DNA of 64,000 nucleotides from Candidatus Omnitrophota bacterium. GTDB taxonomy: Bacteria; Omnitrophota; Gorgyraeia; Duberdicusellales; 4484-171. Shown here one piece after another: positions 19,396 through 48,735 of the stretch. The position numbers and the translations under genes are program-made. Position 1 is the first letter of the stretch. Each line of letters starts with the position of its first letter. The stretch spans positions 33,848-97,847 of the forward strand of contig JBAWWL010000005.1 in assembly GCA_037146775.1 (NCBI GenBank), given 5' to 3'. The notes beneath the pieces were generated by a model. It saw nothing but the letters and a program-made list of their open reading frames with translations. It did not search any database and was not told where the DNA came from.

Positions 19396-19428
19396 AAATA
19401 ATATTTTTAGCTTATAATAGTTATTGTC

Positions 19429-20927: not shown

Positions 20928-22597
20928 GAATCCTGCTCATCGCCCCTCCTATCGAGGATTTTTACTTCACGCCTCAACGAGCATATCCGCTGGGAATATT
21001 ATATTTGGCCTCATCGTTAGCCGTCCGCGGGTTTACCGTTAAAGTTCTTAATGCTTTAGAAACTAACAAAAAAATAACGCTAAAAATACCCGATGATTTT
21101 ACCTATCTTAAGCGGTATTACCAGCCAAACAGGTCTCCTTTTTGTCTTTTTTCGAATTATTATCATTTTGGTTTGACCTATCCGGAAATCGAGGCGGTCG
21201 TCAGGCAGTTTCGGCCCGCTCTCGTGGGTATTTCTTCCAATTTCTCGCCTTATTTCGACACCAGCCGTCAAGTTGCCCGGATAGTAAAATATGTCGACGC
21301 CCGGATCCCGGTAGTGATGGGCGGAAGATTTCCCACCTCAAACCCCGAGCTTGTCTTGGGGGAAAAAAGTGTTGATTTTGTGATACGGGGGGAGGGAGAA
21401 GAAGCTTTTTGTGCACTCTGTTCGGCTGTTGCCGAAGGAAGAAGGATTTCTCGTATCAAAGGTTTATGCTATAAAGTAAACCAACGCCTCCACATCGCAT
21501 CCGCTCCCGTGTTGATTAAAAAACTTGATGCTTTACCGTTTCCTGATCGCCGTCTGATCGATTATCAGCGCTATGTTTTCGGCGGCACGGTCATGACTTC
21601 GCTTATTTCTTCCAGAGGTTGTGTGCTTGGTTGTAAGTTTTGTGCGATACAAGAGAAATTTCGTAGCCGCAGCGCGGACAATGTTTTTAAGGAGATAGTA
21701 TATTGTTATAGCTTAGGTATACGGCATTTTAATTTCGAGGATGACAATATCAACATTAACCCTCATTTTGGCAAGGTTTTAGACCACCTCATTGATAACT
21801 TTGCGGGGAAAATAACAGTGTCGTTTATGAACGGTTTATTGGCTCAAGGGCTGCACGCTGGCTTACGGAAGAAATTGCTTGCAGCCGGCCTTACCCATAT
21901 TGATTTGTCGCTGGTTACCAGCAACAGGAAAGTCCGGCTAAAAACCGAAAGGCCGTCCTGGCAGAAAAGCATTTTTGATCTTTCTAGTTTTATGGCCCGG
22001 CGCGGCATTGCGCCAACAGTTCATTTCATTATTGCTTTGCCTGGCCAGAGGTTTATCCAGGCACTGGCAGACGTGAAGTTGCTGGCAAAAAAAACAGTTA
22101 AGCTTGGCCCAAGCATATTTTATCCGGTTATCGAGAGCGGTTTTTTCCAAGAGCTAAAGGAAAGATTTGGTTTTAGCGCGCAGGGCTATAGGCTTTTTCG
22201 TTCTAGTTGCGCTTGTTTTGACCGGTACATGTCTCGCGATGAAATATTTACCATTTTCTATCTTTCCCGTGTGGTGAATTTTGTCAAAGATTTGATCGAT
22301 AACGGTGTTATTCAAGAAGACACCCTGTCTTCATTTTTGCTTACAGTCCCAGAAAAAACCAATAGTACCAATGACAATCTTGTTACTGTGCAAAGAATCG
22401 AGAGAGAGCGTTTGGGTGTAATTCTTTTAAAAAAGCTGATTGAAGAAAAGAGTGTTTATCGGGTAGAAGAAAAACAAAAAAACGGGCAATTTTATTACGC
22501 TTTTTTCCGGGATGATTTTATTTCCGCCCACCATATCCGGTTGGCGCTTGAAGGCCTTTCTGTACGGGGTTTATCCGGCAGGGCTATAAAAATATAA
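20924..22597 (+). CDS. B12-binding-domain radical SAM protein of unknown function
   Basis: 557 aa. N-terminal Rossmann-like B12-binding region (MRILLIAPP). SSRGCVLGCKFC CxxxCxxC. Confidence 0.7.
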   Translation: MRILLIAPPIEDFYFTPQRAYPLGILYLASSLAVRGFTVKVLNALETNKKITLKIPDDFTYLKRYYQPNRSPFCLFSNYYHFGLTYPEIEAVVRQFRPALVGISSNFSPYFDTSRQVARIVKYVDARIPVVMGGRFPTSNPELVLGEKSVDFVIRGEGEEAFCALCSAVAEGRRISRIKGLCYKVNQRLHIASAPVLIKKLDALPFPDRRLIDYQRYVFGGTVMTSLISSRGCVLGCKFCAIQEKFRSRSADNVFKEIVYCYSLGIRHFNFEDDNININPHFGKVLDHLIDNFAGKITVSFMNGLLAQGLHAGLRKKLLAAGLTHIDLSLVTSNRKVRLKTERPSWQKSIFDLSSFMARRGIAPTVHFIIALPGQRFIQALADVKLLAKKTVKLGPSIFYPVIESGFFQELKERFGFSAQGYRLFRSSCACFDRYMSRDEIFTIFYLSRVVNFVKDLIDNGVIQEDTLSSFLLTVPEKTNSTNDNLVTVQRIERERLGVILLKKLIEEKSVYRVEEKQKNGQFYYAFFRDDFISAHHIRLALEGLSVRGLSGRAIKI

Positions 22598-30412: not shown

Positions 30413-30656
30413 AGGAGTATATTCTACAATAAAATCCTTATTTTTCATCATTTTTTTTGATTAACGGGTTATGTCGGATGAATAGAATAAAACTGCAATT
30501 TTGGACGTGTCTCTTTTTTATCCCTACCCCGTTCCAGCAACCTCGTTTTAATGTGGGAAGAACTCGAGTTGGAGGGGGGGAGACGGTATTTCTTACTGGC
30601 GTGTGATTTAAAACCGCTTGCGAAGGTTATAATTTTATGGATTTTTGACACCAACT

Positions 30657-30665
30657 TGGTATAAT
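30657..30665 (+). promoter_or_regulatory. extended -10 promoter element (TGgTATAAT) just upstream of the thioredoxin-CcdA gene
   Basis: TGGTATAAT at 30657-30665. Start codon at 30675, suggesting a near-leaderless transcript. Confidence 0.4.
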
Positions 30666-30674
30666 CTAACCATA

Positions 30675-31802
30675 ATGAAAAAATTAATCTTGTCTCTGGC
30701 GCTTCTTTTTTTGTCTTTTTCTGCTCTTGCGGCCGAAAAGCCGACAGTCACCTTCTTTTATTCCCCACAGTGTAAAAAATGTATGGACTTAAAGCAGGAA
30801 TTTTTACCTTCCTTAAAAGAAAAATACAAAGATAAGGTGGTTTGGAAAGATCTGAATACTCAGGAAAAGAATAATATCATTTTTTTAATGGCGGTTACGA
30901 CGCGTCTGAAGAAAACAGGTTCGTATGTTCCGTCTGTTTTAGTGGGGGATATATTCTTAATCGGGAAGAATGAAATCAAAGATAAACTGGAAAAAACTAT
31001 TTCTACAGTCCTCAATAAAAAAACCACTCCGCTCGATTTTTTAAAGGTAGACGTACTGCAAATATTCAATAAGCTTTCAGTTTTTACTATCATAACCAGC
31101 GGCCTCATCGACGGTATAAACCCCTGTGCTTTTGCCGTGATTGTATTTTTCGTTTCGTTCTTGGCGGTGTACGGATATCGTAAGCGCTCAATTTTGTACG
31201 TAGGCATATTTTATTGCCTTGCCGTATTTACCGCTTATTTACTTATCGGCCTGGGCGTGTTCAAGTTTCTTTATGCCATGAGTGGTTTTTATCGAGTGAT
31301 AAAGTATTTCTATTACTTCGTAGCTGGTTTTTGTTTTATTTTGGCCGCTTTCGCACTCTACGATTATTTCCGGTATAAAAGAACCAAGGAAACAGACGGT
31401 TTAGTGTTGCAGCTGCCTTCTTTTTTAAAAAAGCATATTACTGCGGTGATAGGCTCTCAGCTAAGAGAGAAGAAAGATGAGGGGGTGGCCAGTTTGGCTA
31501 TCAGTGCTTTTGTGGTGGGTTTTCTTGTTTCTTTGCTCGAAGCAGCCTGCACAGGCCAAATATATTTGCCCACTATTATATTTATTTTACGCAACACTTC
31601 TCTGCAGGCAAAAGCATTCGCTTACCTTGTTCTTTATAATCTTATGTTCGTGGCGCCTCTGATAGTGGTATTTGTGCTGTCACTTCTCGGTTTTAGTTCG
31701 CGGCGGTTTGATACATTCTTAAAAGAAAATATGGCGGGTATAAAATTTTTAATGTTTTTGCTTTTTATGTTATTAGGAGTGGTGATACTATGCGTAAGTT
31801 AA
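30675..31802 (+). CDS. thioredoxin-like domain fused to a CcdA/DsbD-type transmembrane thiol-disulfide transporter
   Basis: Signal peptide. FFYSPQCKKC thioredoxin-like CxxC. DGINPCAF CcdA motif. Second Cys in LLEAACTGQ. Confidence 0.65.
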   Translation: MKKLILSLALLFLSFSALAAEKPTVTFFYSPQCKKCMDLKQEFLPSLKEKYKDKVVWKDLNTQEKNNIIFLMAVTTRLKKTGSYVPSVLVGDIFLIGKNEIKDKLEKTISTVLNKKTTPLDFLKVDVLQIFNKLSVFTIITSGLIDGINPCAFAVIVFFVSFLAVYGYRKRSILYVGIFYCLAVFTAYLLIGLGVFKFLYAMSGFYRVIKYFYYFVAGFCFILAAFALYDYFRYKRTKETDGLVLQLPSFLKKHITAVIGSQLREKKDEGVASLAISAFVVGFLVSLLEAACTGQIYLPTIIFILRNTSLQAKAFAYLVLYNLMFVAPLIVVFVLSLLGFSSRRFDTFLKENMAGIKFLMFLLFMLLGVVILCVS

Positions 31803-32131
31803 TATTATTGATATTGTTAGTTTGCTCATCTTCTCTTGTCTACGCCAAAGGCATGGACCGGCTCATGGAATTTGATCTGGGAAAAATTCCTCCCCACAAA
31901 ACCGCCTCCTATCGTCACGAATTTCACGAGGAAATAGTAAATGTTACCAGTCTGTGCGAATGCATCAAGGCGCACGTATACAAAAAGTACGATCATAGCA
32001 CCGAACCCATCTATGTGGTTAGTATAGAGTTTGAGCCCAGCGGCTACAATGGAGAAGTAAGCCAGGACGTTCTGCTTTTAGACAGTAAAGGTAATCTGAT
32101 CACGTTACGGCTGAAAATGTTTGTCGAATAA
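31790..32131 (+). CDS. secreted DUF1573-domain protein
   Basis: Signal peptide MRKLILLILLVCSSSLVYA. FDLGKI and SLCECI match the DUF1573 FDFG / SCGCT motifs. Confidence 0.5.
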   Translation: MRKLILLILLVCSSSLVYAKGMDRLMEFDLGKIPPHKTASYRHEFHEEIVNVTSLCECIKAHVYKKYDHSTEPIYVVSIEFEPSGYNGEVSQDVLLLDSKGNLITLRLKMFVE

Positions 32132-32214
32132 ACCGGCTCCGTCACTATCGCCGCTCATCTCACGCATAAAGCCGCTTTTACTGCCAACGTTTGCTAAAAC
32201 TTTCTTGGTAAATC

Positions 32215-33504
32215 ATGATATCGACCTTGCCGTATCTTGCGTTCGCCGACAAAAAAGGAACTGTCTATAGCCATCCTTTTTTACGTATGGCTGTCTCTGA
32301 CTTAAGCCAATTTAAATTACCTACGCAGGAAGAATTGATCCGGTTGCCTAAGGGGAGCGCTATTTTTTATCTTCCCGGACGCACGCCAATCGGTTTTAAC
32401 CCTAATACCGGGAATTTCGAAGCGTTAACTACCTTTGAGGGTAAAGAAGTTTGCGCCGTCGCGGCATCGCTTATTCCCGCGTATGTGCGCTTATATCATC
32501 CTGCCGCAATATTAAAACAGCATTACCAGCTGCCGTTATGGGCATACACCGCGGCTGGATGTTGTGGGAAAAATGTTTATGTGACGAGCCGGCGTATTGA
32601 CATAAGAACCAGGCACAATCCTCATTTTTACGATACTCACGTTATAAGAGAAAAAATAAATATTTTAATCAAGCGTTATCCTCAAAATCGGCTGATCAAA
32701 CATTTTGCCTATTGCGCTCTTAATTATAATTGTCTTACGGCCAGACATCTTTTTTTAGCCAGGGGCGAAGCACCGGTCGTTGCTTCGCGTCATTGCAATG
32801 CGTCTTGCCTGGGTTGCCTTTCGCGCCGAGGGTCTGATTGTCTTTCCTCACACGCGCGAATAAATTTTATTCCCAACGAAAATGAAATTATCGAGGTAAT
32901 GAAACACCATTTACGCCTCGCAGCAGAACCTATTATTAGTTTTGGCCAGGGTTGCGAGGGTGAGCCGCTTTTAGAGGCGGAACGGATAGCTTCGGCAATA
33001 AAAAAAGTGCGCGAGCAAACCGCTCGGGGAACCATTAATATGAATACCAACGCCAGTTTACCGAAAAAAATAGAACTTCTTTGCCGTGCCGGTATAGATT
33101 CGTTTCGGGTGAGCTTAAACAGCCCGCGCCAGCATTTTTACCAGCTTTATTTTAGGCCCCGAAGATACTCTTTTAAGGATGTACTTTCTTCTATCGCGAT
33201 AGCGAAAAAATACCGCAAGTTTGTTTCGGTTAACTTGTTTGTTTTTCCGGGATTCTCCGACACCGCCGAGGAAATTAAAGCTTTGAAACTTTTTATAAAA
33301 AATACCGGCATCGACATGATCCAATGGCGCAATCTTAATATTGACCCCGCGTATTATGCGCAAAAGCTTTTTCCTCATTCTTCAAAGCCTCTGGGTGTGT
33401 CCCAGCTTTTAAAGACCATCACCGATACATTTCCGTATCTTAAGATGGGCTATTTCAATCTGCCAAAGGAACAGTTTGCAAGTTTTAGAAACGTGATAAA
33501 ATAA
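32215..33504 (+). CDS. radical SAM protein of unknown function with about 180-aa N-terminal domain
   Basis: HCNASCLGC (CxxxCxxC). GQGCEGEPLL SAM-binding glycine motif. Confidence 0.6.
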   Translation: MISTLPYLAFADKKGTVYSHPFLRMAVSDLSQFKLPTQEELIRLPKGSAIFYLPGRTPIGFNPNTGNFEALTTFEGKEVCAVAASLIPAYVRLYHPAAILKQHYQLPLWAYTAAGCCGKNVYVTSRRIDIRTRHNPHFYDTHVIREKINILIKRYPQNRLIKHFAYCALNYNCLTARHLFLARGEAPVVASRHCNASCLGCLSRRGSDCLSSHARINFIPNENEIIEVMKHHLRLAAEPIISFGQGCEGEPLLEAERIASAIKKVREQTARGTINMNTNASLPKKIELLCRAGIDSFRVSLNSPRQHFYQLYFRPRRYSFKDVLSSIAIAKKYRKFVSVNLFVFPGFSDTAEEIKALKLFIKNTGIDMIQWRNLNIDPAYYAQKLFPHSSKPLGVSQLLKTITDTFPYLKMGYFNLPKEQFASFRNVIK

Positions 33505-33522
33505 TTAAAAAGGAGGGTTATT

Positions 33523-33744
33523 ATGGCGACAAAAACTGTAGAACTAAATATGCCGGGAGATTTGAAAAAGGATCCTTTTTTCTACAATATTATTAAAAAC
33601 TTCGATGTCGTTCCCCGCATACTGGAGGCATCATTTTCTACCGAGATGGGCTGGGCAATCGTTGAATTCGAAGGAAAAGAAAAAGAATTAAACAGGCTTT
33701 TTACTTTTCTCAAAGAAAAAGGCGTAGAGCTAAACTTTCTATAA
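33523..33744 (+). CDS. small ferredoxin-fold (NIL/ACT-like) protein
   Basis: 73 aa. Good AGGAGGG SD. Beta-alpha-beta pattern. Adjacent to the radical SAM gene. Confidence 0.3.
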   Translation: MATKTVELNMPGDLKKDPFFYNIIKNFDVVPRILEASFSTEMGWAIVEFEGKEKELNRLFTFLKEKGVELNFL

Positions 33745-34001
33745 TAAACAATTATTTTTGACACCGTTTTTCATTTTTTCTGGCAGCCTCGTAAAATCAA
33801 TCATAATCCGAAGTCTCGCTGTGATGGTCGGATGAACAAAATCACTGCAAACTAAAAGACATCAAATTTATTAATAATTTTTCCATTAGCTAGTAAACCA
33901 CCGCGGTAAAGCACAGAACTGCGCTAAAATTTCTGTTAACTAACAACTAACAGACATACTATCGTCAAGGTAAATAATGTAATTATTGACGTAGAGTAAT
34001 T

Positions 34002-35117
34002 ATGAAAAAAAATATAATTATATTAATTTTCACGATACTTTTTGTAAGTTATTTTCATGTCGATATATTCTGTGCCGATGTGGGGAATAAAACTATATCC
34101 CATCCGGCGCGTTATTGGCAAAAAATAAACAATAAAATTGTCCAATGTCTTTTATGCCCGCGTAAATGTATCCTTGATGTGGGCCAGCGCGGAGTATGTA
34201 CTGTACGGATCAACCAAGATGGGCAACTGTATTCTCTCGGCTATGGCAATCCTGTTGCCATGCATATCGATCCCATAGAAAAAAAACCTTTTTTCCATGT
34301 ATTACCCGGTGAAACCGCATTTTCTATCGCTGTAGCCGGCTGTAATATGCGTTGTCTGTTTTGCCAAAACTGGCAGATATCACAATCTCGGCCCGATGAA
34401 GTAGATCATTATAATATGTCGCCGGAAAACATTGTTAATGAAGCCTCAAAGAATAGCTGTCCGTTTATTGTGTATACGTATACCGAGCCCACTGTATTTT
34501 ATGAGTATATGCTGGATATTTCAAAATCAGCTAAAAAAGTAGGTTTGAAAAATGGTATGCATACCTGTGGCTATATCAATCCCGAGCCGCTCAAAGAATT
34601 ATTGAAATATATGGATGCAATTAATGTGGATATAAAAAGTTTTAATACCGAATTTTACCGTAAAATGGGGATGATGGCCCAGTTACAGCCGGTTCTAGAC
34701 ACGATAAAGACTATCAAGCAAGAGGGCGTGTGGCTTGAATTAACCAATCTCATCATTCCCAATGAAAATGATAGCCAGGTCGAAATTGAAAAGATGTGTG
34801 TCTGGATTAAGGAAAATTTAGGCGACGAAGTGCCCGTACATTTTAGCCGCTTTGTACCGCAATTTCGGCTGCAGAATTTGCCGTCCACGCCAATCAGTAA
34901 ATTAGAAGAAGCAAGCAGGATAGCCAAAAGTGTAGGCTTGAAATATGTGTATATAGGTAATGTTCCCGGCCACCCCCAGGAAGACACCTATTGCCCTAAT
35001 TGTAAAAAACTATTGATAGATAGAATTGGCTATGAAATTCTCGAAAATCACGTCAAAGAAGGAAAATGTAAATTCTGCGGTTATAAGATTGCTGGCATAT
35101 GGCGTGATGCAAAATAA
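34002..35117 (+). CDS. AmmeMemoRadiSam-system-type radical SAM enzyme (orphan: no AMMECR1/Memo genes adjacent)
   Basis: CLLCPRKCIL...GVC...GCNMRCLFCQNWQISQS. Family-specific QNW after CxxxCxxC. DPIEKKPFFH block. Confidence 0.8.
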   Translation: MKKNIIILIFTILFVSYFHVDIFCADVGNKTISHPARYWQKINNKIVQCLLCPRKCILDVGQRGVCTVRINQDGQLYSLGYGNPVAMHIDPIEKKPFFHVLPGETAFSIAVAGCNMRCLFCQNWQISQSRPDEVDHYNMSPENIVNEASKNSCPFIVYTYTEPTVFYEYMLDISKSAKKVGLKNGMHTCGYINPEPLKELLKYMDAINVDIKSFNTEFYRKMGMMAQLQPVLDTIKTIKQEGVWLELTNLIIPNENDSQVEIEKMCVWIKENLGDEVPVHFSRFVPQFRLQNLPSTPISKLEEASRIAKSVGLKYVYIGNVPGHPQEDTYCPNCKKLLIDRIGYEILENHVKEGKCKFCGYKIAGIWRDAK

Positions 35118-35120
35118 TAG

Positions 35121-35792
35121 ATGCAAAACAGCTTTATTACCACCCTACAACTTTTTTTTATCGGCTTTAGTTTCGGTATTACCGGCCCATGTATTTTTAG
35201 CTGCACCCCGATTATCATAACCTATCTTTGCGCTACAAAAAAAGAACGGTTTTCTGCTTTTGTGGATATTTTTATTTTTTTGGCCGGCAGATTCCTAGCA
35301 TATTTAGTTTTGGGTTTTTTAACCGGCCTGGGGCTGGGTTTATTAAAGCAGTTCATTGATTCAGGGCTTACTCAATTTTTGCGTTTTGCCGGTGGGATTA
35401 TTACCGTGCTTATGGGATTGGCTATTTTATTTTTTAAAGAACGGAATAACTTTTGGTGTAAACTTATACAGGCAAAAGCTACCGGGCTTGGCAGTTTATG
35501 TATGTTGGGTTTTATTGTAGGCATAAGCCCATGCGTACCGCTGGTGACGCTTTTAACTGAGGTAGCTTTGATGTCAAAAAACATCTATGACAGTGTATGG
35601 TATACTTTTTCTTTTGCGTGCGGAATATTTCTTTCAACCTTTGTAGTATTAGCAAGCTTAGGGGGGATATGCACGTGGGTTCCTAAAAAAATCATAAAAT
35701 CAAAAATAAGCGAAATTATTTTTAAAATAATTTGTTCAATTCTGCTTATTATTCTTGGTATGGATATTGTGATGAAAAATCTTCCTCAGTAA
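35121..35792 (+). CDS. DsbD_2/CcdA-like membrane protein with two conserved PC motifs
   Basis: 6 TM segments. GPCIFSC and SPCVPL motifs. Confidence 0.4.
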   Translation: MQNSFITTLQLFFIGFSFGITGPCIFSCTPIIITYLCATKKERFSAFVDIFIFLAGRFLAYLVLGFLTGLGLGLLKQFIDSGLTQFLRFAGGIITVLMGLAILFFKERNNFWCKLIQAKATGLGSLCMLGFIVGISPCVPLVTLLTEVALMSKNIYDSVWYTFSFACGIFLSTFVVLASLGGICTWVPKKIIKSKISEIIFKIICSILLIILGMDIVMKNLPQ

Positions 35793-35793
35793 C

Positions 35794-38085
35794 ATGAAAA
35801 AAATAACATCATTTTCTTTTTTCCTTATAGGTTTTACTGCTATGAGCGCGCAAATCATCTTTGCGCGGGAACTATTGATTACCTTTTACGGTAACGAATT
35901 GTCTCTCGGCTTAATTTTATCATGTTGGCTCTTTTTTACGGCCACAGGCAGTATTGTTTTAGGTTTCTTCAGCGGCAGGATTAAAAACAAGTTGAATTTC
36001 TTTGCCTCTTGCCAGATTGTTGTTGGTATTTTTCTTGTTTCCATTCCTTTAGAAATTCGTGCGATCAAAAGTATCTTTCAGGTAGCTACCGGTGAAGTTA
36101 TGCCTTTAGGGATTATTTCTGTATCCAGCATTATTGTTACTGCACCATTCTGTGCATTGCTTGGTTTCATGTTTGCGCTCGCCTGCCGCATCAATGAGCG
36201 TAAGCCAACCTTAGAGGCTGTCGTAATTAACAGTGTGTATGTATTAGAAACGACAGGCGCAATATTCGGTGGCATAATTGCCAGCGTCATATTGATAAAT
36301 TTCTTAAATACCTTCTACGCCGTTAGTGTGCTGGCTTTAGTAAATTTTTTTGCCGCGCTGTTGTTGATATATTTTTCTCAAGAGAGATATATTAAGAAGT
36401 TTTTGACTACTTTAGTTTTATTATTAATAGTAGTTTTCGTTTCGGCTTATTTTTTAAAAGGCTGGACCAAGATTGATAACTACTCGCAGAGATTACAATG
36501 GAGGGGTTTTCATATCATTGCTTCAGAAAATTCTATTTACGGAAACATTACTTTAGCCAGCAAAAATGAAGAGATCAGCTTTTTTAATAATGGGCTATTG
36601 CTTTATACTATTCCCGATACGCAAACAGCCGAAGAGGCCGTACACTTTGCTTTACTCCAGCATAAGAACCCTAAAGATATACTTTTGGTCGGCGCGGGCA
36701 TAGCCGGATTAACCCAAGAAATTTTAAAATATCCTTCGACAAAGATAGACTACATAGAGCTTGACCCTTTGATCATTAAAATGGCCGACACATATGTCTT
36801 GAGAGAAACACAAATATATCGCGATAATGCAAGATTAACAATAAAGAATATCGATGGCAGGTTGTTTGTTAAAAGTAGTCAGAAAAAATACGACTGCATC
36901 ATTATACATTTAGGCGACCCTTTACTGGCACAACTAAATAGATATTATACTTTTGAATTCTTTAAGGAAGTAAAAAACATTTTGAAAAAAGACGGAGTTT
37001 TTTCTTTTACTGTCAGTTCTTCGGAAAATTATATCAATGCCGACCTAAAAAAAGTTTTGCAATCGTTTTATATAACGCTACAAAAAGTTTTTCCTGACGT
37101 AAAAGTCATACCCGGCGATACTGCTTGTTTTTTGGCTTCAACCAGCAAGAATGCGCTTACGTATGATTACGATATTCTCACTAAAAGGGCACATCAAAGA
37201 ATGGTCGATCTAAAATATATACGTGAATACTATCTTGCCTCAAAAATGTCCGCCCAAAGAGTGCATTATTTTGAAACAATACTCTCGAAAAAAAATCAAG
37301 CAGCGATTAATTATGACTTTTACCCGACAAGCTATTTTTATGAAACGATTTTTCATTTAAGCCTTTTTAGGGATTCACAATTTGCCAAGATACTTAGGTC
37401 CACAACTGCTGATAAGATTTGGGTTATTTTTAATATTCTTGTCGTCGCCATTTTAATTTGGTTTATTTCATTCAAAAATAAAGCAAACTACTCACACATC
37501 TTTATATTCGCAATAGGAGTGACTGGTTTCGGTCAGATGGCATTTCAGATGCTCATTTTACTCTCATTTCAGATAATATACGGCTACATGTTTTATAAAC
37601 TAGGGTTTATTTTAACTTCTTTTATGCTCGGGCTGGCATTAGGAGCATTATGGATCAATACGCATGCTTCCAAGCTAAAAAAAACAGTTAACAGCTTTCT
37701 TTATGCTCAATTAGCACTTACTGCGTATTCGGTTGTTTTACCCCTATTTTTTTGGTGGCAGAAAAGTCAGACAATTGATATGATGTATAAATTAGGAGCA
37801 GGAGTATTTTTCCCTTTATTATCCGGGATAGGCGGTTTTATCGGTGGTTGGCAATTTTCTTTGGCAAATATAATATGTCTAAAACATTATCGCAAACCTG
37901 CTATAATAGGGAACTTTATCTATGCCGCAGATTTATTCGGCGCATGTTTAGGAGCATTTTTAGTGAGTACTTTTCTTATCCCAGTTATCGGCATACCTAA
38001 TAGCTGTGCGATGCTGACAATGATAAATCTGATAGTGTGCGGCCTGCTTTTGGCCTCGGCTAAATCTAATAATATTGGCAATTAA
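35794..38085 (+). CDS. polytopic membrane protein fused to a spermidine-synthase-like (aminopropyltransferase-fold) domain
   Basis: 763 aa. About 8 N-terminal TM helices. Central LLVGAGIAGLTQEI...DYIELDP...IIIHLGDP Rossmann-type SpeE-like block. More TM helices C-terminally. Confidence 0.6.
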   Translation: MKKITSFSFFLIGFTAMSAQIIFARELLITFYGNELSLGLILSCWLFFTATGSIVLGFFSGRIKNKLNFFASCQIVVGIFLVSIPLEIRAIKSIFQVATGEVMPLGIISVSSIIVTAPFCALLGFMFALACRINERKPTLEAVVINSVYVLETTGAIFGGIIASVILINFLNTFYAVSVLALVNFFAALLLIYFSQERYIKKFLTTLVLLLIVVFVSAYFLKGWTKIDNYSQRLQWRGFHIIASENSIYGNITLASKNEEISFFNNGLLLYTIPDTQTAEEAVHFALLQHKNPKDILLVGAGIAGLTQEILKYPSTKIDYIELDPLIIKMADTYVLRETQIYRDNARLTIKNIDGRLFVKSSQKKYDCIIIHLGDPLLAQLNRYYTFEFFKEVKNILKKDGVFSFTVSSSENYINADLKKVLQSFYITLQKVFPDVKVIPGDTACFLASTSKNALTYDYDILTKRAHQRMVDLKYIREYYLASKMSAQRVHYFETILSKKNQAAINYDFYPTSYFYETIFHLSLFRDSQFAKILRSTTADKIWVIFNILVVAILIWFISFKNKANYSHIFIFAIGVTGFGQMAFQMLILLSFQIIYGYMFYKLGFILTSFMLGLALGALWINTHASKLKKTVNSFLYAQLALTAYSVVLPLFFWWQKSQTIDMMYKLGAGVFFPLLSGIGGFIGGWQFSLANIICLKHYRKPAIIGNFIYAADLFGACLGAFLVSTFLIPVIGIPNSCAMLTMINLIVCGLLLASAKSNNIGN

Positions 38086-38105: not shown

Positions 38106-38267
38106 ATGTTCGATCTTAGTAAACTAGGCGATATGGCTAAAATTGCCCAGGAAGCAAAGCAAATTCAGGAAAAACAGGAACGTTTTCAGAAAGAGCAGAT
38201 TGACCTGCTGAAAAAAATATCCCAGCAGTTAGAGGAGCTAATACGGCTGGCAAAGGAAACGAAATAA
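38106..38267 (+). CDS. unannotated 53-aa coiled-coil protein (YbaB-N-terminus-like)
   Basis: Not in the ORF track (below 60 aa). GGAGGGAG SD 5 nt upstream. MFDLSKLGDMAKIAQEAKQIQEKQ resembles the YbaB/EbfC N-terminus. Confidence 0.35.
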   Translation: MFDLSKLGDMAKIAQEAKQIQEKQERFQKEQIDLLKKISQQLEELIRLAKETK

Positions 38268-42107: not shown

Positions 42108-43949
42108 ATGTTAAATTTATTCAATATCAGTATATCTTTTTTGCATGACCCACTTTCCTTATTTTTCGTATTTACTATCCTGCTCATCTCTCTGCCTTCG
42201 GTAATTTATTCCCTTGGGTATCTCAAGGGTGAATACTCTTTGAAGAAAAGGTTCTACGGCTTGACGCTTTTTACCATTTTTGTCATTTCGATGTGTTTAG
42301 TGGTAACCGTAGATAACGCGCTTATGTTCCTTATTTGCTGGGAGCTGATGTCGTTGGTTTCTTATTTCCTGGTTATCTTCGACCATGAGAACGAAAAATC
42401 TATACGTGCCGGAACGATTTATGTGGTGATGATGCATATCGGAACCGCCTTTATTGCCGCCGCTTTCCTTATTATGTATAAACATGCCGGCTCTTTTGAT
42501 TTCGCGGCCCTTAAGGCGGCTTGTCAAAGTATGCCTATTGCTACCAAAAACTTACTTTTTGTATTTTTCCTTCTTGGTTTCGGCACTAAAGCCGGGATTG
42601 TGCCTTTGCATATATGGCTTCCTTTGGCACATCCTCAGGCACCCAGTCATATTTCAAGTCTGATGTCGGGAGTGATGATTAAAACCGCTATTTACGGAAT
42701 AATCAGGTTTATTATTTTTGTTCTCGGGGTTAGCTCTTTGTGGTGGGGGAATTTAGTTTTAATCCTGGCCGCGTTTTCCTGCCTTATCGGAGTTATCTAC
42801 GCGCTGATGGAGCACGACATAAAAAAGCTTCTGGCTTATCATAGCGTAGAAAATATCGGAATAATTCTTTTAGGCGTGGGCGCTTGTATGGTATTTTTAC
42901 AATGCAATCTGCCCTATATGGCGGTGTTTTCTCTGGCCGCCGGCTTGTATCATTTGATTAATCACGCTATCTTTAAGAGCCTTCTGTTTCTCTGTGCAGG
43001 AAGCGTATATAAAGTAACCGGAACGCGTGACATGGAAAAGCTCGGAGGCCTCATTAAAAAAATGCCTTGGACTGCCGCCGCCTTTCTTATGGGAGCAATG
43101 GCAATCTCGGCATTACCTCCTCTAAACGGTTTTGTGAGCGAGTGGTTGATCCTGCAGACGTTTTTTTTAGGTATGTTAAAGGTCTCGGGCGGCCTTAAAG
43201 TCTTTTTCGCACTTTGTGCTGCCGCTTTAGCTTTGACCGGAGGCCTGGCGGCTGCCTGCTTCGTAAAAGCTTTCGGTATTACTTTCCTGGCGATGCCAAG
43301 AAGCAGTAAAGCGAAAGAGGCGAAAGAGGTGGTTTTTTCCATGAAGGCGGGTATGGTTTTTTTAAGCGCACTGACGCTTATTTTTGGCCTAGCTGCAGGG
43401 GTAATATTCAAGGTATTGGCGGCAATCGCTCAGAGTATAGTAGCTGCGGACGCTCCTGCGATGAATTTTAGTTTGAACAATTTTACGCTCGCAACCGTCT
43501 CGGACAACCCAACCTATCTTTCTCCTCTGGCGGTTGCTTTGGTGCTTGTCGCGGTGATGGCGGTAACGGCAATTCTGGTTTTTGTAGTGGCAGGCAAGGC
43601 GAGAGTGAAGAAATACGGCACCTGGGATTGCGGGTATTATAAGTTGACCGGCCGCAATGAATATACCTCAACGGCATTTTCCAAGCCTTTCAGGATAGCG
43701 TTTAGTTTCTTTCTGCGGCCTTACAGAAAAACAGAAAAAATTAGAGAATCTTTTTACCACGTCAAAGCTTTCAAGTACGAAACATTTACTACGCCGGTTT
43801 TTAAAAAGTATATATACGCGCCGATTTTGGCTATCACGTTCGGTTCAGCCCGCCTTATGCGCCGGATTCAGCCCGGAAGCATACACTTATATATTGCGTA
43901 TATTTTTGTAACCATAGTCACTTTAATTATTTTTATGAAGATATTTTAA
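42108..43949 (+). CDS. NuoL/HyfB/MnhA-like antiporter-type membrane subunit of an Ehr-type complex
   Basis: 613 aa. About 16 TM helices. PF00361 proton-pumping-subunit pattern (WLPLAHPQAPSHISSLM). Confidence 0.8.
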   Translation: MLNLFNISISFLHDPLSLFFVFTILLISLPSVIYSLGYLKGEYSLKKRFYGLTLFTIFVISMCLVVTVDNALMFLICWELMSLVSYFLVIFDHENEKSIRAGTIYVVMMHIGTAFIAAAFLIMYKHAGSFDFAALKAACQSMPIATKNLLFVFFLLGFGTKAGIVPLHIWLPLAHPQAPSHISSLMSGVMIKTAIYGIIRFIIFVLGVSSLWWGNLVLILAAFSCLIGVIYALMEHDIKKLLAYHSVENIGIILLGVGACMVFLQCNLPYMAVFSLAAGLYHLINHAIFKSLLFLCAGSVYKVTGTRDMEKLGGLIKKMPWTAAAFLMGAMAISALPPLNGFVSEWLILQTFFLGMLKVSGGLKVFFALCAAALALTGGLAAACFVKAFGITFLAMPRSSKAKEAKEVVFSMKAGMVFLSALTLIFGLAAGVIFKVLAAIAQSIVAADAPAMNFSLNNFTLATVSDNPTYLSPLAVALVLVAVMAVTAILVFVVAGKARVKKYGTWDCGYYKLTGRNEYTSTAFSKPFRIAFSFFLRPYRKTEKIRESFYHVKAFKYETFTTPVFKKYIYAPILAITFGSARLMRRIQPGSIHLYIAYIFVTIVTLIIFMKIF

Positions 43950-44017
43950 AAAAGGTAGTTTATTCAAAAAAACGCAAAAACAGTTTCTTTAAAAACAGAT
44001 TGTTAACCATATAACAC

Positions 44018-44935
44018 ATGAGAACAGTATTTAGTATTTTGCAAATCATTATGTTGATAGTCATTGCTCCTTTGGTGAGCGGATTGATTACTAAGATAAA
44101 GAACAATGTGCGTCTGCGCCGCGGGCAAAGTGTATTCCAACCCTACTATAATTTAGCTAAGTTATTTTCTAAAGAAGAGGTGATCTCCGAGCATACTTCT
44201 TGGATATTCAGCGTTACGCCTTACGTGGTGTTTGCTTCGACGGTTACCGCTTTATTCTTGGTGCCGACATTTATAGCGAAGAATCCGCAGGGGTGTATGG
44301 GTGATTTATTTTTATTAGTATTTATTTTATCTTTGGGCCGCTTTTTTCTGGCTTTGGCCGGCTTAGACAGCGGAAGCGCTTTTGGCGGTATGGGTTCTTC
44401 TCGAGAAATGTTTATTTCAAGCTTTGCCGAGCCGGCGGCTATATTGGTATTTTTTGCGGTTTCTTTAAGTGCGGGCAGCACAAATTTAGGTGCGGTAACC
44501 ACAGGTGGATTCAGGCTTTCTTGGTTGGTCGCGGCGGTTTCTCTTTTGCTGGTAGTTTTGGCGGAGACCTCGCGTATACCGGTGGACAATCAGGAAACGC
44601 ACTTAGAACTTACCATGGTCCACGAGGCGATGATTTTAGAATATTCCGGCCGTTCGCTCGCTTTAATCGAGCTTGCGTCTTACGTGAAACAAATTGTCTT
44701 TTTTTCTCTGCTTGGCGCGATTGTCTGGCCTTGTATGGCGGCCGCTTCGGCAGGTTATGCAGAAATCATCGCGGCGCTGGCCGCTTACCTTTTAAAGATA
44801 GCTGGCCTTGTGCTGGTAGTGGCGTTAGTCGAGGTGTCATTGGCGAAGATGCGGCTGTTTAGGGTAGTTGATTTTCTCTATTTCTCTTTTGTTATCGCAT
44901 TGGTAGCCGTAATCGCGGCGGTATTTGGAGTATAA
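44018..44935 (+). CDS. NuoH/HycD-like membrane subunit
   Basis: 305 aa. NuoH-family N-terminus (QPYYNLAKLFSKE) and SSREM motif. Confidence 0.75.
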   Translation: MRTVFSILQIIMLIVIAPLVSGLITKIKNNVRLRRGQSVFQPYYNLAKLFSKEEVISEHTSWIFSVTPYVVFASTVTALFLVPTFIAKNPQGCMGDLFLLVFILSLGRFFLALAGLDSGSAFGGMGSSREMFISSFAEPAAILVFFAVSLSAGSTNLGAVTTGGFRLSWLVAAVSLLLVVLAETSRIPVDNQETHLELTMVHEAMILEYSGRSLALIELASYVKQIVFFSLLGAIVWPCMAAASAGYAEIIAALAAYLLKIAGLVLVVALVEVSLAKMRLFRVVDFLYFSFVIALVAVIAAVFGV

Positions 44936-45575
44936 CATGCATACATATATTTTTCTTTTAGGGATATTGGTGATGACTTATTTTATGATGATGGTAAAGC
45001 GGTTGCCGGCTCTCATCAACGGTTTTCGCTGGCAGTCGTTATTTTTATTTTTGTTAACCCTTTTGCTGGCCAAGAGAGAAGCCGATGGTGCTCTTTATGT
45101 TGTCGCGGGCTTAATTTTTCTTCTAAAGGTTGTGTTGGTCCCGTATTTTTTGTTGCGTATCGTAAAGAGGATAAAAGTAAACGAGAATCTCGGCTTTTTT
45201 ATGAACCCGCAGCTTTCGCTTTTAAGTGGTTTGCTTTTGACATATCTTTCTTATTTGTTTACGTTCAAGGTGATGCTCCTGGCTGATAGGATGCAGAGCG
45301 TTTCTTTTGCGCTTTCTCTGTGCGTGACTTTGATGGGCCTTTTTATAATGATTTTCCGGATGAAGGCGGTAGTACAGATTGTAGGGCTTTTGGTGATGGA
45401 GAACGGCTTATTTCTTACCGCAGTGACTATGTGCGGCGGCATGCCTTTTATTGTTGAACTTTCTACTTTTTTAGATATCTTTATCAGCGTTATCATTTTA
45501 GGAGTTTTTGTTTACCGGATAAATACTCTCTTTACGCACATTGATGTGAATAAACTGGATAGTTTGAGGGGATAA
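44925..45575 (+). CDS. HyfE-like small membrane subunit
   Basis: 216 aa with 6-7 TM helices. Same length class as E. coli HyfE. Operon position. Confidence 0.5.
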   Translation: MEYNMHTYIFLLGILVMTYFMMMVKRLPALINGFRWQSLFLFLLTLLLAKREADGALYVVAGLIFLLKVVLVPYFLLRIVKRIKVNENLGFFMNPQLSLLSGLLLTYLSYLFTFKVMLLADRMQSVSFALSLCVTLMGLFIMIFRMKAVVQIVGLLVMENGLFLTAVTMCGGMPFIVELSTFLDIFISVIILGVFVYRINTLFTHIDVNKLDSLRG

Positions 45576-45607
45576 GTAAATTATGGGCTGTATACGTTCG
45601 AGGTAAG

Positions 45608-47059
45608 ATGCACATATTTTGTATTTTTGCTATTCCTTTGTTGATGATGCTGGGGGCGCTAGGGATTAATAACATTCGTGTCTTGGGGCGCCTAAACGCT
45701 TTTGGCTATGCGGTGATATTGGGATACGCTGCCTTTCTGGCATATACCCTCAAGCAGCCGTTAGTGCTCTTTAATTTTTTCTATATAGACGCTTTAAGCG
45801 CTTTTTTTCTCTTTGTCATAGCTTTGGTTACTTCCGCTGCGGCACTTTTTTCCATAGAGTATATTGCCAAAGATCTTGCCGCGGGCGCTTTTTCGCAAAA
45901 AAAAGCCAAAGGGTACTACCTGCTTTTTAATTTGTTTTCTCTTTCCATGTTTTTTGTACCGGTAGTAAATAACCTGGGAATGGTATGGGTCGGTATCGAG
46001 CTCACTACGCTTGCCTCGGCGTTCTTGGTCGGTTTTTACAATAATAAAGCATCGCTTGAGGCGGCATGGAAATACATTATTATCTGTTCCGTGGGAATAA
46101 TTTTTGCTTTGTTTGGAACGATCATTTTTTATTATACCGCTTCACATCACGCCGGTATCAATAGTCTTAATTGGACCGACATGGCCGCCGGAGCCAAGAA
46201 TTTAAACGCCAACATAGTAAAAATCGCCTTTTTGTTCATTCTGGTGGGTTATGGCACCAAGGCCGGCCTCGCACCCATGCATACCTGGCTTCCCGACGCT
46301 CACAGCCAGGCGATTTCTCCGGTAAGCGCGATGCTTTCCGGCGTGCTATTAAAAACCGCTCTTTACGCGATCTTACGTTTTAATGTGATTACCAATATTT
46401 GTGTTGGCAGCCAATATACCTCAAGGCTTTTTATTTTGTTTGGGCTTATTTCTTTGGGGGTAGCCTGCCTTTTCCTTTTAGTGCAAAAACACATAAAAAG
46501 ATTTTTTGCCTACAGCAGCATCGAACACGTAGGAATAATCAGCGTGGGTTTCGGTATAGGAGGAAGTTTAGGGTTTTATGCCGCATTGTTGCATATTTTT
46601 AACCATGCGGTGACCAAGTCGTTGTTGTTTTTTGCCGCGGCAGATGTGGTAAAAAAATATAAAAAAGATAATATGCATATTATCAAAGGCGTCGTAAATG
46701 CCTTACCGTTTACCGGAATAATGCTTGTCTTGGGCATGTTTGCCATAGCGGGTATGCCCCCGTTTTCCATATTTTTTAGCGAGCTTTTGATATTGATTGC
46801 AGGGTTTTCAAAGGGCGCATACGCGGTTTCAAGCCTGCTTTTACTGTTTATAGTAGTTATTTTCGGCGCGATAATCTTTCATTTGAGCCAGATACTTTTC
46901 GGAAAAAAGCCGCAGGATATGCCGGTAGGTAGAGAAGCGGCCAGCAGCAAGCTCGCTTTTATTATTTTAATGATCTGTATGTGTGTGGTAGGTTTTAGGG
47001 TGCCGGCATTTTTACACAGCTTAATTTCACTAGCTGCAGCAGTATTAATGAAGGTATAG
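45608..47059 (+). CDS. NuoM/NuoN/HyfF-like antiporter-type membrane subunit
   Basis: 483 aa. PF00361 signature (WLPDAHSQAISPVSAMLSG). Confidence 0.8.
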   Translation: MHIFCIFAIPLLMMLGALGINNIRVLGRLNAFGYAVILGYAAFLAYTLKQPLVLFNFFYIDALSAFFLFVIALVTSAAALFSIEYIAKDLAAGAFSQKKAKGYYLLFNLFSLSMFFVPVVNNLGMVWVGIELTTLASAFLVGFYNNKASLEAAWKYIIICSVGIIFALFGTIIFYYTASHHAGINSLNWTDMAAGAKNLNANIVKIAFLFILVGYGTKAGLAPMHTWLPDAHSQAISPVSAMLSGVLLKTALYAILRFNVITNICVGSQYTSRLFILFGLISLGVACLFLLVQKHIKRFFAYSSIEHVGIISVGFGIGGSLGFYAALLHIFNHAVTKSLLFFAAADVVKKYKKDNMHIIKGVVNALPFTGIMLVLGMFAIAGMPPFSIFFSELLILIAGFSKGAYAVSSLLLLFIVVIFGAIIFHLSQILFGKKPQDMPVGREAASSKLAFIILMICMCVVGFRVPAFLHSLISLAAAVLMKV

Positions 47060-47060
47060 T

Positions 47061-48644
47061 ATGGTTTACCAAGATTTATTAAAAGGCATAGGGGAAATTT
47101 GCGGGATACAGCTGCTGGACGTTAGTGAGCGTTACCATGACGAAGTATACGTAAGCGTTCAGAAAGAAGATTTTAAAAAAGCCTGTATAGCGCTGCATAA
47201 ATACCTGCGTTCTCCGGTCATGACGCAGTTTGCCTTAGACAACCGCCAGGAACAGAAAGTTTTTGTTCTGTATTGCGGTTTTATGAGTATAAGATACAAA
47301 AAATGGGTTTTTGTGGTTACTGAAATTCCGGCTGATACCGCGCAATTCGATTCTCTGTCTAAAGAACTCTATTCAGCTACTTTGTTTGAGCGCGAAATTA
47401 AAGAAATGTTTGGCATAGAGCCATGTAACAGTCCCGATACGCGCAGCTTGCGGTTGCATGACGAAGTCTGGCCGAGAGGCCAGTACCCTTTAAGAAAAGA
47501 TTTTAAGACAGGTTTGTCCCAAGCTAATTTATTGGGAGAATATGCTTTTGCTAAAGTTGAGGGTGAGGGCATTTTTGAGGTTCCGGTCGGCCCGGTCCAT
47601 GCGGGTATTATCGCGCCCGGGCATTTTCGTTTTAGCTCGGCAGGCGAGCCGATTATCAATTTGGAAATCAGGCTCGGTTTTACGCATAGAGGAGTAGAAA
47701 AACTTTTTGAAGGTAAAAATATTTTCGAAGCAATAAAGCTTTCGGAGTGTGTCGCGGGCGACGCCGCCTTCGGCCACAGTTGGTCATTTTGCCAGGCAAT
47801 TGAAAAAAACTGCGGCGTAACTGTGCCGAAAAATTCTTCGGCTGCCCGGGCAATCCTTTTAGAGCTGGAGCGGATGTATAATCACGTAAACGATATAGGC
47901 GGTATCGCCATTGATGTGGGGTTTAGTTTTCCTGCGGCTTACGCTTCTTTAATGAAAGAAACGATATTACAATTAAACGAGAAAATTACCGGCAGCCGCT
48001 ACCTAAAAGGAGCGAACACGATAGGCGGAGTAAACTTTGATTTAAACGAAGAAAAGAAAAGACTCATTAAAAGCTCTTTAGGTGCCTTTGCGAAAGATTT
48101 CGAAGAGCTTAAAAACATATTGTTTTCCAGTGTTTCTTTTATGGACAGGGTAGATGGCACCGGTATATTGAGGAAAAAAACCGCAGAGGATTTTGGCGTG
48201 GTAGGCCTTTGTGCCAGAGCCTCCGGGATAGCCGCGGATTTGAGAAAAGATTTTACCGGCATATATGATAAAGTTAAGTTTCATTCAGAGAAACAGGAAA
48301 CAGGGGATGTTTTGGCCAGACTGAATCTGCGGATTCTTGAATGCGAAGAATCTATGCGTTTAATAGAACAATTTTTGCGTATCGTAGGTGGGTCAGAGAA
48401 TAAAATCTTAATCAGGCCGCAACCCAAGGCAGGTTTTGCTTTGGGGTACATAGAAAGCTGGCGCGGCCCGGTGCTCTATTGGGTTAAGATCGATGCTCAA
48501 GGTTTTATTGAACGCTGTAAGATTGTCGACCCTTCATTTCATAACTGGCCGGCTCTTGCGTACGCGGTGTTAGGTAATATTATTCCCGATTTTCCTTTGT
48601 GTAACAAGAGTTTCGATCTGTCATATGCGGGTAACGACCTATAG
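47061..48644 (+). CDS. fused NuoC-NuoD-like / group-4 hydrogenase large-subunit-like protein lacking all four NiFe-ligating cysteines
   Basis: N-terminal 30-kDa-subunit-like domain. GPVHAGIIAPGHFRF block. L1 position reads SECVAGDAAFGH instead of ERxCGxCxxxH. C-terminus SFDLSYAGNDL instead of DPCxxCxxR. Confidence 0.75.
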   Translation: MVYQDLLKGIGEICGIQLLDVSERYHDEVYVSVQKEDFKKACIALHKYLRSPVMTQFALDNRQEQKVFVLYCGFMSIRYKKWVFVVTEIPADTAQFDSLSKELYSATLFEREIKEMFGIEPCNSPDTRSLRLHDEVWPRGQYPLRKDFKTGLSQANLLGEYAFAKVEGEGIFEVPVGPVHAGIIAPGHFRFSSAGEPIINLEIRLGFTHRGVEKLFEGKNIFEAIKLSECVAGDAAFGHSWSFCQAIEKNCGVTVPKNSSAARAILLELERMYNHVNDIGGIAIDVGFSFPAAYASLMKETILQLNEKITGSRYLKGANTIGGVNFDLNEEKKRLIKSSLGAFAKDFEELKNILFSSVSFMDRVDGTGILRKKTAEDFGVVGLCARASGIAADLRKDFTGIYDKVKFHSEKQETGDVLARLNLRILECEESMRLIEQFLRIVGGSENKILIRPQPKAGFALGYIESWRGPVLYWVKIDAQGFIERCKIVDPSFHNWPALAYAVLGNIIPDFPLCNKSFDLSYAGNDL

Positions 48645-48650
48645 AGAAAC

Positions 48651-48724
48651 GATTACACAGATTTTTAGGAATGATTACACAGATTGAGAAATCAGTGTAA
48701 TCTGCATTTAATCGGTGTAATCTT
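48651..48724. promoter_or_regulatory. array of four GATTACAC boxes (two direct, two inverted; 20-22 nt phasing) between the large- and small-subunit genes
   Basis: gattacacagatt at 48651 and 48673. cagtgtaatctg at 48693. cggtgtaatctt at 48713. Confidence 0.55.
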
Positions 48725-48735
48725 ATTTAAAAAAT

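Follow-up and report, generated by a model that had tools for sequence, protein, structure and literature searches.

A radical SAM enzyme of the AmmeMemoRadiSam family encoded with a DsbD_2 protein and an MFS/SpeE-fold fusion in Omnitrophota: a possible extracytoplasmic variant of the system

AmmeMemoRadiSam is a bioinformatically defined three-gene system comprising an AMMECR1-like component A (TIGR04335), a Memo-like component B (TIGR04336) and a radical S-adenosylmethionine (SAM) enzyme (TIGR04337). Its eukaryotic relatives, Memo1 and AMMECR1, are linked to disease. Burroughs and colleagues reportedly tied the system in 2019, tentatively, to the modification of nucleotide bases or isoprenoids, and our literature search found no biochemical characterisation of the TIGR04337 family. 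Here we analyze a stretch of 64,000 nucleotides from a Candidatus Omnitrophota bacterium (contig JBAWWL010000005.1, positions 33,848 to 97,847; hereafter the window), in which the gene for a TIGR04337 enzyme (hereafter rSAM) is followed by those for a DsbD_2 protein and for a 763-amino-acid (aa) membrane protein joining a major facilitator superfamily (MFS) transporter to a spermidine-synthase-like (SpeE-fold) domain. In many genomes the rSAM gene lies beside the gene for the MFS/SpeE-fold fusion, often with the DsbD_2 gene between them. We propose that this trio (34002-38085), a conserved three-gene module, encodes a form of the AmmeMemoRadiSam system that works outside the cytoplasm, draws on a dedicated reductant conduit and may have a SAM supply to itself; judging from the sequences, we consider the chances of this reading to be about even.

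As in the AmmeMemoRadiSam system, the window enzyme passes TIGR04337 with much to spare, and some related loci have the A and B components fused and directly adjacent; the constant partners, however, are DsbD_2 and the MFS/SpeE-fold fusion, and predicted export signals are found on rSAM and, in loci that have them, on the A/B proteins. By sequence, the closest characterised radical SAM relatives are the glycyl-radical-enzyme activases NrdG and PflA, which give the next-best NCBIfam matches (69.7 and 65.2 bits, both far under their cut-offs). Unlike PflA, NrdG and the anaerobic sulfatase-maturating enzymes (anSMEs), rSAM has additional CxxCxxxC...C N-terminal and CxxC...CxxC C-terminal motifs, and it bears a predicted export signal whereas those enzymes are cytoplasmic. 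As far as we know and the searchable literature shows, every characterised radical SAM enzyme is cytoplasmic. That compartment offers SAM, low-potential reductants and Fe-S assembly.

The partners also have described counterparts. Members of the CcdA/DsbD family (PF02683, PF13386), to which the DsbD_2 protein belongs, share six transmembrane (TM) segments, Pro-Cys cysteines in TM1 and TM4, and two termini predicted outside. They typically serve periplasmic thioredoxin-like proteins or apocytochromes; in the present case, by contrast, the adjacent or fused candidate client is a radical SAM enzyme, and the trio encodes no thioredoxin-like partner. The domain inserted in the 763-aa protein shares its fold, Gly-rich loop and acidic ribose-binding residues with the SpeE enzymes of Thermotoga maritima (1INL/1JQ3) and Thermus thermophilus (1UIR) and with the NF037959 family. 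Unlike the SpeE enzymes, it is placed between MFS halves, is predicted to be periplasmic, and lacks both the Asp that selects decarboxylated SAM (dcSAM) and the catalytic Asp170. We found no functional study of MFS/spermidine-synthase fusions in the literature. In extracytosolic electron-transfer systems, FMN_bind domains sit outside the cytosol and are flavinylated there by ApbE, and NapH-like and DsbD proteins act as modular transmembrane electron conduits (Meheust et al., 2021, eLife, PMC8238504). That study lists reductase, oxidase and iron-uptake partners, and mentions neither radical SAM enzymes nor Memo nor AMMECR1. FMN_bind, Fer4_5 (PF12801) and DsbD_2 modules are found in rSAM fusions of the present family; the window itself has the DsbD_2 version only. 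We did not find described in the literature either the link of TIGR04337 to the MFS/SpeE-fold fusion and DsbD_2, or the export signals of TIGR04337 proteins and their fusions to extracytosolic electron-transfer modules, with the proviso in both cases that Burroughs et al. 2019, the single detailed comparison of Memo-AMMECR1 systems, may contain part of this.

The family assignment of rSAM, already made in the initial annotation, is firm: the protein scores 390.8 bits against TIGR04337 (cutoff 220), over aa 36-369 and model positions 1-335 of 349. Its cysteines lie at positions 49/52/56/66, in a CX3CX2C motif at 114/118/121, and at 331/334/356/359; the CX3CX2C and the N-terminal Cys motif are kept in the 12 homologs compared. 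The National Center for Biotechnology Information (NCBI) already names a 100% identical protein, encoded on a 173-kb contig of a metagenome-assembled genome, 'AmmeMemoRadiSam system radical SAM enzyme', and the 763-aa protein 'fused MFS/spermidine synthase'.

We scanned an alignment of the membrane protein against one genome per species, which returned 572 relatives, and ran every window protein by tblastn against the best 80 of these 572 loci. A TIGR04337-type rSAM gene stands beside the membrane protein gene in 59 of the 80. About 25-30 loci have rSAM, DsbD_2 and membrane protein together, three of them with a fused Memo-AMMECR1 gene directly upstream; about 25 have rSAM and membrane protein without DsbD_2; and in eight an rSAM/Memo-AMMECR1 operon is convergent with the membrane protein gene (class C). 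The link between rSAM and membrane protein is still present at 44-54% rSAM identity (L092, L094). The complete trio is found in L001, L003/4 and L005/6, where its upstream neighbours vary (L001, L003, L005) and encode an ACT/AHAS small subunit, a DUF169 protein or a fused Memo-AMMECR1. Nothing beyond rSAM, DsbD_2 and the SpeE-like membrane protein is shared by the neighbourhoods of rSAM homologs on long contigs. None of the genes for the window's 429-aa radical SAM protein, NIL, thioredoxin/CcdA-like, DUF1573, ThiI-like, TonB-receptor or GNAT proteins occurs near the membrane protein in the 80 loci.

These comparisons do not uphold the five-gene conserved unit of the initial annotation, which had combined the trio with the 429-aa radical SAM and NIL genes, since the trio recurs without the upstream genes. 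The cluster is instead two modules that occur together in close relatives only: module 1, made of the thioredoxin/CcdA-like protein, DUF1573 and the 429-aa radical SAM protein, and module 2, made of rSAM, DsbD_2 and the 763-aa protein. We treat 30645-33744 as a separate module because the 429-aa protein keeps its upstream partners alone and the trio recurs without it. The 429-aa protein represents a conserved Omnitrophota family with homologs 55-64% identical, and the membrane protein and DUF1573 pair is retained 5' of it in L087-L090. The full gene order of the window recurs only in the close relatives L087 and L090, which also have the NIL gene after the 429-aa gene; L088 and L089, both complete Omnitrophota genomes, lack this NIL gene, and there the 429-aa gene keeps only the upstream genes for a 376-401-aa membrane protein and DUF1573. 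In L089 (CP070797, 7361-8278) it is followed directly by tatA and tatC, where the window has NIL and the trio. Just one further NIL-domain gene was seen close to a trio: in L003, a NIL-ferredoxin gene lies with an HcyBio (COG1900-type) gene 3-4 kb downstream of the trio (15136-16799). It is probably unrelated to the 73-aa NIL protein.

Fusions of family members point to the same extracytoplasmic context. A search of 1.84 billion representatives returned 8465 rSAM relatives, and the best 150 were examined for fusions. By Pfam, DsbD_2 is fused to rSAM in P0367 and P0372, DsbD_2 with FMN_bind and Fer4_5 in P0381, and FMN_bind with a NapH-like Fer4_5 module in P0365 and P0366; in P0378 and P0380, one TM helix precedes FMN_bind and rSAM, with no TM helix between the two domains. 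Other members carry a signal peptide followed by a beta-propeller (Reg_prop/PorZ-like) or a weak CBM_11-like domain (P0362, P0363), which may point to a glycan or surface polymer as the substrate of exported members. P0388 joins a signal peptide, Memo and AMMECR1 to rSAM, and rSAM-AMMECR1-Memo triple fusions without signals also occur among the best 150 of the 8465 relatives. All fusions run against TIGR04337 pass it (363-416 bits). Candidates of 1000-1150 aa for a 'Rosetta stone' fusion of rSAM to the membrane protein proved to be triple fusions of the latter kind. On the partner's side, the membrane-protein homolog P0238 (L091) carries a further NapH-like Fer4_5 module at its C-terminus; the trio it belongs to is otherwise identical. 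We put to the test the prediction that distant exported rSAMs also have the membrane-protein partner, and counted it as borne out in three of three cases tried: in L092 a DsbD_2-rSAM fusion gene overlaps a 753-aa Spermine_synth membrane gene; in L093 a DsbD_2 and Fer4_5 protein adjoins an FMN_bind-rSAM fusion, where the contig ends; and in L094/L095 a Memo-AMMECR1 fusion with an RR-type signal and a rSAM with a twin-arginine translocation (Tat)-type signal are followed by a convergent 788-aa Spermine_synth membrane gene.

The N-terminus of the window rSAM consists of MKK, a 14-residue h-region and a weak c-region, which we call a signal by rule. A like N-terminus with A-x-A-like sites is present in 12/12 homologs inspected. 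Among 118 close homologs, 112 have a Lys/Arg n-region followed by an h-region, and 107 of these 112 have a small-x-small site after it. The co-directional rSAMs of the 80 loci carry a signal in 42 of the 43 cases with a readable N-terminus, and on 15 of them it is a canonical [ST]R[RK]xF Tat motif (for example TRRDFLKK, SRREFLKV, SRRQFLKRG and TRRKFLKG). The type of signal tracks gene content: it is Sec-like in 19/22 DsbD_2 loci, and mostly twin-arginine, with the 15 canonical motifs, in loci without DsbD_2. That Sec-like signals go with DsbD_2, and Tat signals with loci lacking it, suggests a chief need for DsbD_2 in keeping cysteines reduced in an enzyme that Sec exports unfolded. TatA and TatC are encoded in at least the Omnitrophota genome of L089. 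From these signals we infer that rSAM probably leaves the cytoplasm, as an exported protein or as one anchored on the outside of the inner membrane.

The DsbD_2 gene starts 3 bp past the rSAM stop codon, and its product scores 57.4 bits against PF13386 (cutoff 24.9). The six-TM architecture with paired Pro-Cys motifs described in the initial annotation is borne out by a 27-sequence alignment, with six hydrophobic segments, GPC24xxxC28 and PC138xP; Cys24, Cys28 and Cys138 are invariant in 27/27 homologs. Loops 1-2, 3-4 and 5-6 of the same 27 homologs are rich in Lys and Arg, which places both termini outside, and with the C-terminus outside, a rSAM fused to it would be outside too. Electron transfer from cytoplasmic thioredoxin to a periplasmic client is what membership of this family would imply for the window protein, and we propose rSAM as that client on the grounds of adjacency and fusions.

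The 763-aa protein passes NF037959, 'fused MFS/spermidine synthase' (71 bits, cutoff 40), and matches Spermine_synth (PF01564) at aa 280-437 with 91.9 bits. The NCBI version is 747 aa long; the longer N-terminus (MKK...) is backed by homolog alignments. It has the 12-TM fold of the MFS, in two six-helix halves, with two extra helices around the insert; the N-terminal helices span residues 2-31, 35-62, 66-94, 105-136, 141-170, 173-194 and 201-220. The termini and the central loop of MFS proteins are cytoplasmic, so two extra helices would put the insert on the non-cytoplasmic side. The distribution of Lys and Arg in a 75-sequence alignment agrees independently, with 1.4-3.8 per loop at the N-terminus, loops 2, 4, 6, 8, 10 and 12 and the C-terminus, against 0-1.0 elsewhere. 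An FYGNE motif in the predicted outer loop 1 and an FQxxYGYxFYKxG motif on the predicted outer face of the C-terminal membrane part are both invariant, and their location would suit an active or docking site that faces the periplasm.

The initial annotation had called the inserted domain an aminopropyltransferase-like Rossmann domain, a label that holds for the fold and fails for the aspartates that define aminopropyltransferases. The domain matches 1inl (phmmer, 6.5e-18) and 1uir (Foldseek, 4e-12), and its model reaches a TM-score of 0.72-0.77 to solved SpeE enzymes. It has the class I SAM-binding Rossmann fold and keeps SAM-binding features, namely the Gly-rich loop and E322, D324, D354 and R356, invariant in the 75 sequences. 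The Asp of the GGGDGG motif, which selects dcSAM, is present in 0/75 and replaced by Val, Ile or Ala in 75/75. At the position equivalent to T. maritima D170, 64/75 sequences have Asn (34), His (22) or Ser (8) and five have Asp; at that of D173, 57 have Asp and nine Glu. The SpeE equivalog cut-offs were failed in each case (TIGR00417, 77.9 vs 249.6; PRK00811, 103.2 vs 260; PRK03612, 132.4 vs 472). For the protein as a whole, comparison of the model gave the amine antiporters VMAT2 and VAChT as the closest MFS folds.

No Memo or AMMECR1 gene is present in the 64-kb window, where six-frame tblastn with a Memo-AMMECR1 fusion gave a best E of 2; this also excludes that wrong calls of open reading frames (ORFs) had hidden them. 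The enzyme is thus an orphan locally, as first annotated; this is not a rule of the subfamily, because relatives do have adjacent Memo-AMMECR1. In L005/L006, L060, L066, L070 and L094 the trio or pair has a fused Memo-AMMECR1 gene as its immediate neighbour, and in eight other loci such genes are convergent; most trio loci, the window included, have neither gene within 10 kb. The fusions carry Sec, lipoprotein or RR-type signals, and those next to trios are of the Sec type. We infer that Memo and AMMECR1 are optional neighbours, predicted to be exported where present.

Our proposal for the trio runs as follows. The rSAM would be exported, or held at the outer surface of the inner membrane, in the window by means of its Sec-type signal. 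DsbD_2 would relay cytoplasmic reducing equivalents through Cys24/28 and Cys138, and this reductant would either keep the at least 11 ligand cysteines of rSAM reduced or feed electrons to rSAM; FMN_bind and NapH-like modules may take over the role of DsbD_2 in other family members. The 763-aa protein would be a DHA1-like MFS exporter whose periplasmic SpeE-fold domain binds SAM or a close analogue. As a predicted outward SAM-binding exporter, it may therefore supply or present the cosubstrate, or co-modify the substrate, at the site of rSAM, the target being an envelope-located molecule. The 429-aa radical SAM, NIL, thioredoxin/CcdA-like and DUF1573 genes would form a separate module that is only adjacent. 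The envelope-associated pathway of the initial annotation thus points in the right direction, given the rSAM signal, the CcdA-like conduit and the periplasm-facing Rossmann domain, but does not stand as a single five-gene pathway. More tentatively, and with less than even confidence, we suggest that the trio is the first recognisable extracytoplasmic radical-SAM machinery, with a Tat- or Sec-exported enzyme, SAM delivery by an MFS protein, a transmembrane reductant conduit and an envelope substrate.

Several points weigh against this proposal. Of the 80 loci, 21 have no rSAM in reach; some of these are on short contigs, and roughly a dozen are not. The calls of signals and topology come from simple rules together with an AlphaFold model rather than from dedicated predictors or experiments, and the c-region of the window enzyme (IFCA) is atypical and less canonical than that of most homologs. 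Seven class C rSAMs have no signal and in-frame stops just upstream, and the class C Memo-AMMECR1 fusions have lipoprotein-like signals (LFSC, LMSC and LCSC; L061, L065, L068, L076, L082, L083); with a signal-less enzyme and a lipoprotein-like partner, the components need not share a compartment. This split between enzyme and partner is not fully explained by any model proposed here. Class C resembles the anSME-type enzymes, which mature proteins that are later exported. We know of no mechanism for assembling an Fe-S cluster on a Sec-exported protein, and the window enzyme is of the Sec type; SAM is not known from the periplasm, and no SAM-exporting MFS transporter is known to us. The thiol/disulfide potential of DsbD-type proteins is too high for direct reduction of a radical-SAM [4Fe-4S] cluster.

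The main surviving rival is that rSAM is a maturase, comparable to the glycyl-radical activases or the anSMEs, that modifies an exported partner protein, either Memo-AMMECR1 in loci that have it or the periplasmic domain of the MFS fusion, while DsbD_2 keeps the cysteines of target or enzyme reduced and the MFS part moves an unrelated small molecule. NrdG and PflA as next-best matches, the common triple fusions and the conserved LRGCIG motif of AMMECR1 are in keeping with such a role, and the combination seen in class C suits modification before export. We nevertheless think it unlikely: most trio loci have no Memo or AMMECR1 nearby, an exported rSAM would depend on extracytoplasmic SAM all the same, and nothing speaks for a modified residue. 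If instead the hydrophobic N-terminus tethered rSAM to the inner face of the membrane, beside DsbD_2 and the MFS protein, and the SpeE-like domain were also cytoplasmic, the module would be a cytoplasmic pathway of an ordinary, membrane-associated kind: no extracytoplasmic Fe-S assembly or SAM supply would be needed, the signal-less enzymes of class C would fall into place, and so would triple fusion P0377, in which an N-terminal helix followed by KK favours a cytoplasmic catalytic part. Such an arrangement is at odds with the canonical Tat motifs on at least 15 co-directional rSAMs and the small-x-small motifs of 107/112 homologs, with the fusions to FMN_bind that have no intervening TM helix, with the DsbD_2 protein, predicted N-out/C-out, that bears rSAM at its C-terminus, and with the MFS fold, whose two extra helices and Lys/Arg pattern put the insert outside. 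It therefore appears distinctly unlikely.

We find it improbable that one operon of five to seven co-directional genes encodes a single envelope-modification pathway, as initially annotated. The shared strand, the identical order in L087 and L090, and the presence of a CcdA-like membrane protein and a radical SAM enzyme in both halves fit such an operon, but a 257-bp gap separates the halves, module-1 genes are near the membrane protein in 0/80 loci, the genes that precede the trio vary among L001, L003 and L005, and in L088/L089 the 429-aa gene keeps its upstream partners alone and is then followed by unrelated genes. That the 763-aa protein is a true membrane-bound aminopropyltransferase coupled to polyamine export, with rSAM in polyamine or methylthioadenosine-related metabolism, we consider very improbable. 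The Spermine_synth score, the partial matches to PRK03612 and PRK00811, SpeE enzymes as structural neighbours, and VMAT2 and VAChT as closest MFS folds could be read in this way; yet all equivalog models remain far under cut-off, the GGGDGG Asp is absent in 75/75 sequences, only 5/75 have an Asp equivalent to Tm-Asp170, and the domain is predicted outside the cytoplasm, away from dcSAM.

The features discussed are collected in Table 1. All ORFs described in the initial annotation were recovered on the + strand with the same coordinates. They were said to be tightly spaced and co-directional; the strand is shared, but the spacing is uneven, with 18 bp from the 429-aa gene to NIL, 257 bp from NIL to rSAM, and gaps of 3 bp and 1 bp within the trio. 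A scan found 37 promoter-like sites (23 expected), none outstanding, and seven terminator-like sites (7.8 expected). A SAM riboswitch or other RNA was considered for the 257-bp gap, where an Rfam scan at gathering threshold matched none.

Table 1. Features of the trio and of adjacent genes in the window
Feature	Coordinates	Strand	Remarks
AmmeMemoRadiSam-family radical SAM enzyme (rSAM), 371 aa	34002..35117	+	TIGR04337; 35-aa N-terminal extension precedes family core
Predicted Sec-type signal peptide or signal anchor of rSAM (MKKNIIILIFTILFVSYFHVDIFCA)	34002..34076	+	Homolog N-termini
DsbD_2/CcdA-like six-TM protein, predicted N-out/C-out	35121..35792	+	PF13386; Cys24, Cys28, Cys138 conserved
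MFS transporter with inserted spermidine-synthase-like domain, 763 aa	35794..38085	+	
N-terminal membrane part of 763-aa protein: MFS N-half (TM1-6) and extra TM7	35794..36453	+	
SpeE-fold Rossmann domain of 763-aa protein (aa 240-536), predicted periplasmic	36511..37401	+	
C-terminal membrane part of 763-aa protein: extra TM8 and MFS C-half	37408..38079	+	
53-aa ORF directly 3' of 763-aa protein gene	38106..38267	+	Module membership uncertain
429-aa radical SAM protein (module 1; outside trio)	32215..33504	+	N-terminal beta domain and radical SAM core
73-aa NIL-domain protein	33523..33744	+	PF09383; after 429-aa gene in close relatives only
385-aa membrane protein, N-terminal CxxC thioredoxin-like segment (module 1)	30645-31802	+	Matches under cut-off
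DUF1573-like protein (module 1)	31790-32131	+	Match under cut-off

Among the genes flanking the trio, the 429-aa protein has a generic Radical_SAM domain only (aa 190-353). Its N-terminal part, about 130 aa, is an all-beta domain in the predicted model (pLDDT 89.2); this domain gave no structural match, and the core matched generic radical SAM folds only. The NIL-like character of the 73-aa protein is confirmed by PF09383 (41.7 bits, cutoff 24). The thioredoxin-CcdA and DUF1573 labels given to the upstream pair hold at the motif level only, and the scores lie under curated cut-offs (Thioredoxin_2, 18.2 vs 27; DUF1573, 19.6 vs 26.1). The 385-aa protein has CKKC and NPC motifs and matches thioredoxins of the Protein Data Bank weakly (E 0.02-1); aligned to DsbD_2 by hhalign it gave a probability of 1.2%, and its likeness to CcdA is at the level of motifs. 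The 53-aa ORF is coiled-coil-like and has a strong GAGGAGGG ribosome-binding site but no family match. Homologs (55-63% identity, tblastn) directly follow the membrane protein in L031, L032, L034, L040 and L047, and L087 has two small genes at this position.

Elsewhere in the window, three further radical SAM genes lie within 20 kb upstream (16765-22597, +), encoding an RlmN-like enzyme (16765-17820), a B12-binding radical SAM protein (20924-22597) and a 299-aa PflX-like enzyme (18496-19395) whose CxxCPxxC N-terminal motif resembles that of the AmmeMemoRadiSam enzyme. A type IV pilus/type II secretion-like cluster (2324-15920, +) includes two T2SSE ATPases, a T2SSF platform protein, two prepilin-like genes and a secretin. 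Downstream, 42108-50494 (+) encodes a membrane-bound complex-I-related hydrogenase-like module, with Proton_antipo_M subunits and a fused 30-kDa/49-kDa NiFe-type large subunit, and 52133-53800 (+) a hybrid-cluster (Prismane) protein, both of which fit an anaerobic lifestyle. A c-di-GMP-I riboswitch (RF01051) is present at 55403-55482 (+; 63.7 bits, gathering score 35); the two small ORFs that follow it, 55588-55857 and 55832-56371, match no family.

The association described here gives the AmmeMemoRadiSam system two new testable partners and a candidate cellular location. It also provides a context for the 'fused MFS/spermidine synthase' family, which is uncharacterised and occurs at least 572 times at species level. 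If our proposal is true, the AmmeMemoRadiSam system would act on a cell-envelope substrate, and radical-SAM chemistry would have been moved outside the cell membrane together with its own supply lines.

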